Under the pieces are notes generated by a model. It saw only the letters and a program-made list of their open reading frames with translations, made no database searches and was not told the DNA's origin. This document shows positions 34,545-45,328 of a stretch of 64,000 nt of DNA, one piece after another. This DNA is from Eledone cirrhosa (lineage: Eukaryota), in assembly GCA_964016885.1 (NCBI GenBank), contig OZ024752.1, positions 23,808,001 to 23,872,000 on the forward strand, read 5' to 3'. Within the stretch, counting starts at the first letter, position 1, and each line of letters opens with the position of its first letter. The position numbers and the translations under genes were made by a program.

Positions 34545-34668
34545 AAAATAAAAACTATTCCAGTACTTATTGTATAGCTCTCAATTTGTTAAACTGGTAA
34601 GTATATATATATATATATATATATATATATATATATATATATATATATATATAGTTTTAATATAGATG

Positions 34669-34719
34669 AGATTCTACAGGACTAGAACTGTTTCATTCTT
34701 TAGAAATCATCAGGAATCT
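34669..34719 (-). ncRNA. Type I hammerhead ribozyme motif (PLE family 1, inverted pLTR)
   Basis: Exact reverse complement of 34980-35030. Confidence 0.8.
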
Positions 34720-34979
34720 GGGTATCAAAAAATAAATATGGTATTTATAGGACTCTACAAGTGGTAGGAGAGGGTGAGGAGTGGGATGGGTGTAGGTCAT
34801 TGGTTGATAGAAAAGGGAATTCATTAAAAGCTAATTCTACAAAGCTATAGTTTATTTTTAATAAAAATAAACTATAGCTTTGTAGAATTAGCTTTTAATG
34901 AATTCCCTTTTCTATCAATCCTCACCCTCTCCTACCACTTGTAGAGACCTATAAATACCATATTTATTTTTTGATACCC

Positions 34980-35030
34980 AGATTCCTGATGATTTCTAAA
35001 GAATGAAACAGTTCTAGTCCTGTAGAATCT
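34980..35030 (+). ncRNA. Type I hammerhead ribozyme motif (PLE family 1)
   Basis: AGATTC-CTGATGA-tTTC taaa GAAt-GAAA-CAG ttctagtc CTG-TA-GAATCT: stem I 6 bp, short stem II, stem III, GUA cleavage triplet (after 35024). Confidence 0.85.
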
Positions 35031-35159
35031 CATCTATATTAAAACTTTTATACTCTGCAATGTATTGAGTACCTTACTTACTGTGGTTACCTCCGATTCA
35101 ACCCGAATAACGTACTTTTTAGCACTCTCTGTGCCCCTTATAACCATCATCAAGAAACC

Positions 35160-40970: not shown

Positions 40971-42670
40971 AAACGACCTCCCCCTATTGGCCCCTATACC
41001 TCCTTCCCACCCTACCCCCACCCCTCCTCAACCTGAAATACGGCCACTATGGTTATGTGAGTACCTCTTTCCTATCTACATTTTCTGCCTGTAGAGGTGT
41101 TTTTATGTGGCTGCGTATATGCGTATATTTATTGAGTACTTATTTATTTGTATGTGTATATATTTGTGTGTATGTGTGTGTATGTATGTGTATGTATATA
41201 TATATATGTATGTGTGTATATGTGTTTTATGTGTATATTTATGTATGTATGTGTATGTATATATGTATATATATGTGTATATATATATATATATATATAT
41301 ATATATGTATATATATATATATGTGTATGTGTATGTATGTATATATGTATATGTTTGTATATATATATATATATATATATATATATGTGTATGTGTGTAT
41401 GTGTGTGTGTGTATATATATATATATGTGTGTGTGTGCAGGTGTGTATATATATATATGTGTGTATATATGTGTGTATATATATATATATATATATATAT
41501 ATATATGTATATGTGCGTGAGAGAGAGTGTGTGTATATATATTTGTGCGTGTGTGTGCGTATGTGTGTATGCGTGTATATATATGTATATATGTGTGTAT
41601 ATATGCGTATATATGTTTGTATATATGTGTATATTTATGTATATGTCTGTGTATGTATGTGTATATATGTATATATATATATATATATATATATATATGC
41701 ATGTGTATGTGTGTGTGTGTATATATATATATATATATATATATATATGTATATATATATGTATTCGTGTATGTATGTATGTATGTATGTGTGTGTGTAT
41801 GTATATGTATATATTTGTTTATGTATATATATATATATATATATGTGTGTGTGTGTTTGTGTGTATGTGTGTGCATATGTGTATATATGTGTGTGTATAT
41901 ATATGTATTTTATATATATATATATATATATATATATATGTGTATATATATATATATATCTATGTGTATATATATGTATATGTATACACATGTATATTTG
42001 TGTGTATGTATGTATGTGTGTGAGTGTATTTATATGTGTATATATGAGTGTGTGTGTGTGTGTATATATATGTATGTATATATATATATATATGTGTGTG
42101 TATATGTGTATATATAGATATATTTATATATGTGTGTGTGTTTTTATGTGTGTACATGTGTATGTGTATGCGTGTTTATGGTTGCGCGCGAGTGTGTGAG
42201 TGAGTGTGTTTTTTTGTGAATGTGTCTGTTGATTTTTGGCATATACTTGATTAGTTTAAGAGAAGTTCGAAGATAATTGTAAGATATGCACTCAGTATTT
42301 TGAATCTGGCTACAGAATTCTCTAAACCTTTGTCACTTAGTAGAACCTTAATGAATTTAGCTTTTAAAGAATCTCCCTTTCCTTTAATTCTATCTACCAT
42401 GACTGACCCCCCACTGATCTTATAGACATCTGTTAGCGTAAGAGAAACTTAATGACAAGGAATGGTATGCCATCCGGAACCTGTTTATAGAATTCTGTCT
42501 GCCTTTGTTTCTCTAAAAACAAAAATTAATAAAAATAAACTATAGCTTTGTAGAATTAGCTTTTAATGAATTCCCTTTTCTATCAACCAATGACCTACAC
42601 CCATCCCACTCCCCACCCTCTCCTACCACTTGTAGAGACCTATAAATACCATATTTATTTTTTGATACCC

Positions 42671-42721
42671 AGATTCCTGATGATTTCTAAAGAATGAAAC
42701 AGTTCTAGTCCTGTAGAATCT
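42671..42721 (+). ncRNA. Hammerhead ribozyme motif (family 1, 3' pLTR of copy 2)
   Basis: Identical to 34980-35030. Confidence 0.85.
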
Positions 42722-43619
42722 CATCTATATTAAAACTATATATATATATATATATATATATGTGTGTGTGTTTGTGTGTATGTGTGTGTATATGTATATA
42801 TATGTGTATGTGTGTATATGTATGTATTATATATATATATATGTATGTATATATATATATATATATATATATATATGTGTGTATATATATATATATATAT
42901 CTATGTGTATATGTATGTATATGTATACACATGTATATTTGTGTGTATGTATGTATGTGTGTGAGTGTATATATATGTGTATATATATGTGTGTGTGTGT
43001 GTGTGTATATATATGTATGTGTGTATGTATATATATATATATATATATGTATGTGTGTATATGTATATATATAAATATATTTATATATGTGTGTGTGTTT
43101 TTATGTGTGTATATGTGTATGTGTATGTATGGTTGCGCGCGAGTGTGTGAGTGAATGTGTTTTTTTGTGAATGTGTCTGTTGATTTTTGGCATATAGTTG
43201 ATTAGTTTAAGAGAAGTTCGAAGATAATTGTAAGATATGCACTCAGTATTTTGAATCTGTCTACAGAATTCTTTAAACCTTTGTCACTTAGTAAAACCTT
43301 AATGAATTTAGCTTTTAAAGAATCTCCCTTTCCTTTAATTCTATCTACCATGACTGACCCCCCACTGATCTTATAGACATCTGTTAGCTTAAGAGAAACT
43401 TAATGACAAGGAATGGTATGCCATCCGGAACCTGTTTATAGAATTCTGTCTGCCTTTGTTACTCTAAAAACAAAAATTAATAAAAATAAACTATAGCTTT
43501 GTAGAATTAGCTTTTAATGAATTCCCTTTTCTATCAACCAATGACCTACACCCATCCCACTCCCCACCCTCTCCTACCACTTGTAGAGACCTATAAATAC
43601 CATTTTTTTTTTTATACCC

Positions 43620-43670
43620 AGATTCCTGATGATTTCTAAAGAATGAAACAGTTCTAGTCCTGTAGAATCT
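43620..43670 (+). ncRNA. Hammerhead ribozyme motif (family 1, 3' pLTR of copy 1)
   Basis: Identical to 34980-35030. Confidence 0.85.
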
Positions 43671-45328
43671 CATCTATATTAAAACTTTTATACTCTGCAA
43701 TGTATTGAGTACCTTACTTACTGTGGTTACCTCCGATTCAACCCGGAATAACGTATTACTCTTTTACTCTTTTACCTGTTTCAGCCATCCGGCTGAGGCC
43801 ATATATATATATATATGTAGGAGGTGAGTTTTATTGTAGTACAATAAAGCAACTCTTTGAGTCGGAAAATTCCTAAACTTCGCGGTGGAATTTATCGTGA
43901 CGATGGACTCTTTACTATCTTAAATTGCAACATATTAATAAAAACAATATACGTAATCTCTTTAACCAACATAACTTAAAAATTGAATTTGATAACAGCA
44001 TCAAACTAGCTAATTTCTTGGATGTATCTCTTAATCTTGACACTGGCCTATATTACCCTTACCATAAAAACAATGAGAACCTAAATTATGTTAATTTTAA
44101 ATCTAACCAACCCACTAATATTAAGAATGCTCTAGTTAGTAATATTGGAAAAAGAATATCTAACCTATCTTCTAATAAAAACATCTTTGGTGCTAACGCC
44201 AATTACTATAATAACGCGCTTTCTAAAGCCGGCTATCCTGATAAAATCAAATATAGTAAAGAAACAAATTCTAGAAGATCTTACAGTAGAATAATTAATC
44301 ATGATCATTCCAATAACTTTAATAAAAGACCTAGATACAAAAACATAATCTGGTATAATGCTCCTTTCTCCATCTCTATTAATAATAATATTCCTAAATT
44401 ATTCTTTAGTGCCTTAAATAAATGCTTCCCTCCCTCACATATCTATAGTAAAATATTTAACAAACACACTATAAAATTTTCCTATTCGACCTCCTCCAGC
44501 ATTTCCAACATTATCTCTAACCACAACAATAAAATACTAAATACTAAATCTCTTCCTTCCAACACTGAATATCATAATAATAGTAATAGTACTCCCGACG
44601 TCATTGTAAACTCTAGGCTAATTTCTGAAAACCCAAATACAACGTCAAACACAACTTCGCTAAATGTTCTTAATCCCATTCTAAATCAAGAAACTATTAT
44701 TCCTATCGTAAATAACTTCTCCAATCCAATTCCTTCTATAGATAACACTAGGTCACTCGTTAATAACTCTGCTAATCTCTCTAATCGCAATTGCAATTGC
44801 CCTGTTAAAAATAAATGTCCTCTCAACAACCATTGTCTTGAAAAAACTTAATCTACGAATGTAAAGTTATAACTGACACCAATTCCTTCACCTATTTTGG
44901 CTCCACTTCCACCTCCTTTAAAGCTCGTCTTTATAATCATCATTCGTCTTTTAAATACCAACTTAAAAGAACCAACACGGCACTCTCAGAACTTATATGG
45001 TCCTTGAAAGACAAAAATATTAAATATAACATCTCTTGGAAAAAGGTTTCTTCTGCTTCTCCCTACTTGAACAGTTCTCTATCCAAGACTTGCAATCTTT
45101 GTTTAAATGAAAAATTTACCATTATATCTAATTTAGATTCTATAATAAATAGACGCACTGACTTGTATTCTCTCTGCTTGCATAAATTCGACAGAACATT
45201 CCATAAAGTATACAGCTAATATCTAATACTTTATCAATTTAAAATCCTTTTCTCAAAGGCACATATATATATATATACTTCTTTAAAAATATACCCATCT
45301 TTCTACCTTATTTCAAAGTTATTTATTA

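Follow-up and report, generated by a model that had tools for sequence, protein, structure and literature searches.

A Penelope-like retrotransposon of the Hydra type in Eledone cirrhosa that carries a TA/TG array and has received a second copy within it

We analysed a 64,000-nucleotide stretch of the 3.0-Gb Eledone cirrhosa genome (GenBank assembly GCA_964016885.1, contig OZ024752.1, positions 23,808,001 to 23,872,000; hereafter the window, with positions counted from its first base). The locus of interest holds two copies of a Penelope-like element, one within the other: copy 1 extends over 34654-43755, and copy 2 (38866-42736) lies in the TA/TG microsatellite array that copy 1 carries between its open reading frame (ORF) and its 3′ pseudo-long terminal repeat (pLTR) (Table 1). 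The hallmarks of Penelope-like elements are present, namely a single ORF that combines a reverse transcriptase (RT) resembling telomerase with a GIY-YIG endonuclease, a pLTR, an inverted, 5′-truncated arm, and a tail at one end. A first-pass annotation of the window had described such an element with a hammerhead motif, and the RT and GIY-YIG domains, the pLTRs and the hammerhead core motifs bear this description out.

The array of copy 1 passes through the punctuation mark ATTTGTTTATG (38815-38825) into a (TA)n run, breaks off at 38865 and restarts at 42737 with (TA)12(TG)5TTTGTGTGTATG, the mark GTGTTTGTGTGTATG standing at 42768. In the array of copy 2, only (TA)10(TG)6 lies between these two marks (41813-41867). 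The break and restart (which we place at 42737), the contiguity of the two marks in copy 2 and the small number of substitutions between the copies had all been noted in the first-pass annotation and were recovered here; over the shared ORF and untranslated region (UTR), 6 of 1,328 bases differ. Copy 2 has an inverted arm of 893 bp and an ORF that is 5′-truncated and begins at about 39759. When the locus is parsed as a nest, copy 1 has a short end on its left and a long end on its right, and copy 2 has a long end on its left and a short end on its right; a side-by-side parse violates the rule, described below, that long and short ends are paired. The array restarts in the run where it broke off, and a long end is paired with a short one; on these grounds, the nest is confirmed as a true insertion of copy 2 into the array of copy 1. 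Furthermore, the two arms of copy 2 share array punctuation that has no counterpart in copy 1, and copy 2 therefore came from another parent; a local duplication of copy 1 is ruled out by this difference. A second self-nest was found at another locus (L037), where a 1.2-kb inverted pLTR pair lies within a family array that goes on beyond it.

Table 1. Layout of the nested elements in the window
Position	Strand	Feature	Remark
34602-34653	.	Target run left of copy 1, (TA)26	
34654-34864	-	Copy 1 inverted arm, terminating at short end; hammerhead motif inside at 34670-34721	
34858-35114	+	Partial pLTR upstream in copy 1, with TATA box at 34950-34957, start predicted at A34980, hammerhead motif 34981-35029, short site 35045, long site 35114	Putative promoter
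35160-37304	+	Copy 1 open ORF, 714 aa: RT (YRDD 347) and C-terminal GIY-YIG, Hydra motifs	
37421-38865	+	Copy 1 internal TA/TG array, left part; its terminal (TA)n run is the run struck by copy 2	
38866-39758	-	Inverted arm of copy 2, comprising long end (38866), pLTR and ~270 bp of array in inverted orientation	
39759-41086	+	Copy 2 5′-truncated ORF (residues ~311-714) and unique 3′ UTR	
41087-42179	+	TA/TG array within copy 2, 1.1 kb long and free of interruptions	
42180-42736	+	Post-array region of copy 2 and its 3′ pLTR, which has a hammerhead motif and terminates at short end	
42737-43130	+	Copy 1 internal array, right part, restarting with (TA)12	
43131-43755	+	Copy 1 post-array region and 3′ pLTR, terminating at long end; 69-nt tail past short site 43685/6	
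43592-43624	+	TATAAATA with initiator-like CCAGATT; RNA predicted to start at A43620, where inner junctions have their genome-wide mode	Putative function
43621-43669	+	Type I hammerhead motif; predicted cut after 43664	Motif compared with Hydra table
43756-43816	.	Foreign fragment of 46 bp followed by (TA)7, flanking copy 1 on the right	

To which clade does the element belong? The ORF carries YRDD at residue 347, and the GIY-YIG endonuclease lies C-terminal to the RT (residues 567-697; IVY...YIG, R614, H618, E673 and N686). In an alignment of 35 proteins, the CxCX5C linker (C567/C569/C575) is kept in 34 rows, and the CxxC (C667/C670) and CxH (C695/H697) pairs around E673 and N686 in 33; the RWK-type motif reads RWR at 38-40 (K in 18 of the 35 rows), DKT stands in place of DKG at 116-118, a conserved CCHH is absent, and C590 and C599 in the GIY-YIG core are unconserved. 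The best PDB fold match of the predicted structure (pLDDT 89.6) is TERT (E 1.4e-8); a PDB sequence search with the protein returned only non-significant caspase matches, and a Pfam search of four proteins gave none above the cut-off. One homolog of the ORF carries PF01541, and the homologs are almost all unnamed, one being labelled Octopus bimaculoides by its source. The C-terminal GIY-YIG domain, the RWK-type and DKT motifs, the CxCX5C linker, the CxxC and CxH pairs and the lack of CCHH are shared with the Hydra clade, which includes Hydra-1_Obim of Octopus bimaculoides, as are the type I hammerhead, (TA)n insertion, the pLTR and inverted arms (Craig et al. 2021, PMC8557442; this and the two other papers cited by number are drawn on in excerpt). 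According to the same source, (TA)n insertion and hammerheads are features of almost all Hydra families. Judged by these motifs, the element is a young family of Hydra-clade Penelope-like retrotransposons. The trait of being 'generally under 3 kb' does not apply, the unit measuring ~4.5-5 kb because of its internal array; in the excerpts of PMC8557442 this size is a tendency, not a rule. Membership of the Naiad/Chlamys group, in which the first-pass annotation had framed the microsatellite preference, is rejected, as the endonuclease is C-terminal rather than N-terminal and a hammerhead motif is present.

Hammerhead cores occur in copies 1 and 2 at 34986, 42677 and 43626 on the plus strand and at 38995 and 34713 on the minus strand. 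The motif in the last pLTR of copy 1 consists of GATTC, CTGATGAT, TTC-loop-GAA, TGAAACAG...CTGTA and GAATC, a layout that agrees with the tabulated Hydra hammerheads in the supplement of PMC8557442. In sister families, stem I changes from GATTC/GAATC to GCTTC/GAAGC, which amounts to one compensatory change, and loop II is variable. This motif and the compensatory change point to a putative canonical type I hammerhead in the pLTR.

Copies of the family terminate at two fixed sites, a short end at 43685/6 (sometimes 43679) and a long end at 43755. Exact-pattern counts over the genome gave 3,623 for short ends with TATATA after them and 6,919 for long-end motifs. When long ends were collected by a pattern without any TA requirement (30 ends, 2 of them internal), (TA)3+ lay within 4 nt of 27 of the 28 external ends, compared with 8.3% at random positions. 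Of 17 uninverted 5′ junctions read by eye, 14 likewise adjoin TA; TA is therefore the target, and we reject the possibility of a tail added by the element. These figures support the earlier statement that (TA)n adjoins the elements, which holds generally but not at the right end of copy 1, where a 46-bp foreign fragment precedes (TA)7. An inverted partner arm was present in 32 of 60 end-sampled loci, and every one of these 32 pairs (29 distinct places) consisted of one long and one short end. Public contigs from four runs of one study, placed on 34900-37400 only, have TA behind both ends and are unable to span the nest; they are possibly assembly-dependent, and their depth does not represent copy number. 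As a separate observation, 200 kb of arbitrary DNA (L128-L147) contained 12 hammerhead-core motifs of many distinct families, 11 of them with (TA)4+ within 260 nt downstream, which suggests that hammerhead-core ends number on the order of 100,000 genome-wide.

Many copies are head-to-head pairs of ~200 bp. Their inner boundaries are concentrated at 43618-43630, which accounts for 25 of 60 arms, whereas 43601-43617 has 1 and 43631-43660 has 2; most junctions of the pairs have sequences unlike one another. In 92 of 97 copies, the A of CCAGATT stands 30 nt below the first T of TATAAATA; in the window's last pLTR, the distance is 28. Textbook promoter geometry combines a TATA box at -30 with a YYANWYY initiator. 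Because the spacing fits this geometry, the RNA probably starts at A43620, and its first 50 nt would then be the hammerhead. Loose ends of the public contigs before 34983, the equivalent of 43623, lend weak support to this start. Only 4 of 64 pair junctions fall at the predicted cut (43662-43665), which suggests that the copied RNA is mostly uncleaved; as a trace of self-cleavage by the putative hammerhead, these four are only a hint.

Alternatively, the cluster at 43618-43630 might mark an RT stop at the hammerhead or at the T-rich tract above it, or might derive from a mini-element that amplifies as a unit. The cluster does coincide with stem I, just below the T-rich tract, and the RNA start is predicted from DNA only. 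However, the junctions mostly differ in sequence, a stall induced by structure would be expected on the 3′ side of the fold and not after it, and the spacing from the TATA box is exactly 30; we regard this alternative as rather unlikely, and a transcription start at A43620 as the better account. Beside this, contigs of three runs have joints in 34966-35043 that reach back 77-78 bases across the hammerhead, forming tandem 78-nt units that are retrozyme-like.

Does the internal array belong to the family? We examined 37 of the 38 top matches outside the window, in 36 loci (one match, on contig C1586, was left out as too short). Each of the 38 ORF ends is followed by array sequence, which in 26 of the 38 closes onto the post-array region and pLTR within the 10 kb fetched. 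Fifteen punctuation marks, scored as exact matches, occur in the same order in 34 of 40 arrays (window copies counted); 7 of the 15 were never found in 200 kb of control DNA, in which the commonest occurred 14 times. On these grounds, the array travels with the element, as the first-pass annotation had proposed, and variant subfamilies among the end-sampled loci also bear the marks. Because inverted arms often contain array sequence, that of copy 2 among them, the array presumably goes through reverse transcription. Clean arrays are on average 1.8 kb long and include 20 runs of at least (TA)6; their length varies from 1.1 to 2.6 kb across copies, blocks having been lost or doubled; at two loci (L040 and L053), short inverted array pieces are located within the array itself. 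The array is probably a passenger microsatellite in the 3′ UTR of a master copy, which would grow and shrink by slippage and soak up insertions, mostly of other families. It could also be a selected part of the element, serving as an RNA spacer, a chromatin or transcription signal, or a homing site, since each of the 38 copies with an ORF has retained it, as have variant subfamilies, even though it must be reverse-transcribed ahead of the ORF. This proposal is improbable, given that length varies as described and 18 of 38 arrays are interrupted, that descent from a few masters accounts for the retention, and that the Hydra consensuses in the excerpts of PMC8557442 measure only 1.1-3.0 kb. A passenger array therefore remains our preferred description.

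The interrupted arrays contain 28 interruptions, from which we dropped two derived from a tandem duplication (L055), one repeat (L034), the two small inverted array pieces already mentioned and one merged pair (L054). The remaining 22 comprise 21 foreign insertions and one self-insertion; most interruptions have TA on both sides, and several contain other hammerhead cores. The array is thus a landing pad mainly for other families. If 7,000-15,000 insertions chose runs at random, 0.4-2.7 self-nests would be expected in the 36 loci, and the one that was seen represents no excess; none of the sampled ends (0 of 60 and 0 of 25) lay inside a family array. Copy 2 is therefore likely one more case of a TA target struck at the chance rate. 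The junction pattern of the window occurs once in the genome, which rejects a hot spot at the struck array run.

How much of the TA content of the genome could such arrays explain? From 20 arbitrary 10-kb stretches, we estimated ~8 million runs of (TA)6+ genome-wide (bootstrap 4.1-13.2 million), making up 6.3% of bases, and mixed TA/TG/CA tracts making up 11.6%. Array edges numbered 393 by an exact 5′ pattern, which matches 31 of 38 known copies, and 1,064 by a degenerate 3′ pattern. Assuming 1,064-3,000 arrays, they total 1.9-5.4 Mb and hold an estimated 0.3-0.8% of TA runs and 0.6-1.6% of TA/TG/CA tract bases. It is conceivable, although doubtful, that a large share of the TA landscape was built over time by successive Hydra families, each carrying its own target repeat and leaving TA runs on both sides of its insertions; the present family would then be the current generation, and its arrays communal pads for all TA-seeking elements. 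The first-pass annotation had proposed a positive feedback, by which the family would sow its own target sites, favour them and drive the TA load of the genome. The array is indeed inherited, two self-nests are known (the window and L037), the struck run has ~32 TA units summed over both sides versus 10 in copy 2, and penaeid shrimp Penelope copies that bear microsatellites have been proposed to expand them (Yuan et al. 2021, PMC7878876, in excerpt). Against this stand the array shares just given, self-nesting at the chance rate with ~21 foreign insertions to one self-insertion, the shortness of most copies (only 8 of 60 sampled arms reach the array edge as one match) and the two other Hydra families in the window that have no such array. 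We consider the case for a feedback loop weak and its operation very doubtful; with arrays at ~1% of the load, the counts do not support the element as an explanation of the TA richness of this genome either.

Taking these lines together, we assign a probability of roughly 0.8 to the explanation as a whole, that of a Hydra-clade family which inserts in (TA)n runs and carries a ~1.8-kb TA/TG array between its ORF and 3′ pLTR. The anatomy, the motifs, the inheritance of the array, the TA flanks, the two fixed ends and the pairing of long with short are direct observations, upon which we propose the following mechanism. The RNA would begin 30 nt below the TATA box of the pLTR, where the hammerhead starts. 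Both strands of a TA run would be nicked by the GIY-YIG domain, and each would serve as primer for reverse transcription at one of two internal sites, which lie ~66 and ~135 nt below the position equivalent to the start; the outcome would be a short end and a long end. The ~200-bp head-to-head mini-copies may result from priming near the 5′ end of the RNA, whereas priming in the 3′ pLTR may copy the array and sometimes the ORF too.

Several points weigh against this explanation. Rfam scans returned no hammerhead, only microRNA look-alikes of microsatellites and hairpins, none at the gathering score; in minimum-energy single-strand folds, the hammerhead did not form, and the folds were no better than those of shuffled sequences. 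The RNA start is deduced from the DNA. The ORF loci were those that match copy 2 best, and array presence was hence measured in the youngest subfamily; the genome TA estimate is based on just 20 stretches of 10 kb; and one self-nest is a weak count, compatible with a two- to three-fold self-preference. The arms of copy 2 (38935-39490 and 42180-42736) differ at 8 of 556 bases, exceeding the divergence of the two copies over the ORF and UTR, which is not simply explained by a single-template model; the two arms may come from different pLTR templates. Finally, the region is highly repetitive and the nest is read from the assembly, but an assembly artefact, or three independent adjoining pieces, is highly improbable (a mis-join of haplotypes is rejected), given the unlike 5′ structures and array punctuation of the two copies, the resumption of the array at the same run, the single long and single short end that each copy has only under the nested parse, and the same layout at L037.

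(TA)n targeting, the hammerhead, the tail and the inverted arms are already published. The Hydra consensuses are listed at 1.1-3.0 kb, and the table comments in the excerpts of PMC8557442 do not record an internal microsatellite, in contrast to the ~4.5-5 kb and ~1.8-kb array described here; the tail measures 69 nt instead of the 30-40 nt of the Hydra clade, and the hammerhead sequence is unlike that of Hydra-1_oBim, making the present element another family. In the Poseidon element PAc of Anolis carolinensis, studied in vitro, two internal RT start sites bound the tail, both strands are cut and extended, cleavage is unnecessary and the main template is uncleaved RNA (Frangieh et al. 2024, PMC11167929, in excerpt). 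Two internal start sites around the tail, cutting and extension of both strands and an uncleaved template, all deduced here, would be shared with PAc, which belongs to another clade and has an ATT-type target instead of (TA)n; its strands were not seen to differ in start site in vitro, unlike the 32 of 32 long-plus-short pairs found here. Copies of the shrimp Penelope are >98% identical and have syntenic internal microsatellites that move with the element, as the array does in the present family; the passages of PMC7878876 drawn on neither assign the copies to a clade nor connect the carried repeat with the target nor count nests, and the paper argues for a large contribution to microsatellites, which our counts do not support for this family. 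Elements of the Naiad/Chlamys group share the microsatellite insertion bias, pLTRs, inverted arms and a tail at one end, but have an N-terminal endonuclease and are mostly without hammerheads. In the literature searched (with few subscription journals, and the Craig consensuses unchecked for arrays), we found no Hydra family carrying its own target repeat, no strict long-plus-short pairing, and no junction cluster or start site at the hammerhead.

The nest is part of a single pile-up of TA-flanked elements at 34600-54600. Two further frameshifted elements of the Hydra type, with CxCX5C, CxxC and CxH, lie at 43817-47150 and ~49100-53070 and have long 3′ regions without a TA/TG array. A 193-bp hairpin insertion in the array of another locus (L062, 843-1036) has ends that match both ends of the 43817-47150 element, and this family therefore also makes mini head-to-head copies. 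Elsewhere in the window, ORFs with LINE-type endonuclease and RT occur at 54962-57919 and 60268-62975, one of them open for 985 aa, which we take to be RTE-like. At ~13700-21400 lies a tandem array of 7 kb, each strand of which has long open frames, and helicase-like ORF fragments, presumably PIF1/Helitron-like, are found on the minus strand at 30025-31685.

With thousands of young insertions in one genome, the mechanism of a Penelope element becomes directly readable. The strict pairing of ends and the junction cluster provide testable predictions regarding the formation of the tail and inverted arm and the role of the hammerhead, points that the literature calls open. The carried array is a natural, dated target with which the turnover of microsatellites and the insertion rates of other TA-seeking elements can be followed, and our counts bound the idea that microsatellite-carrying elements explain microsatellite-rich genomes, the contribution of this family being ~1%.

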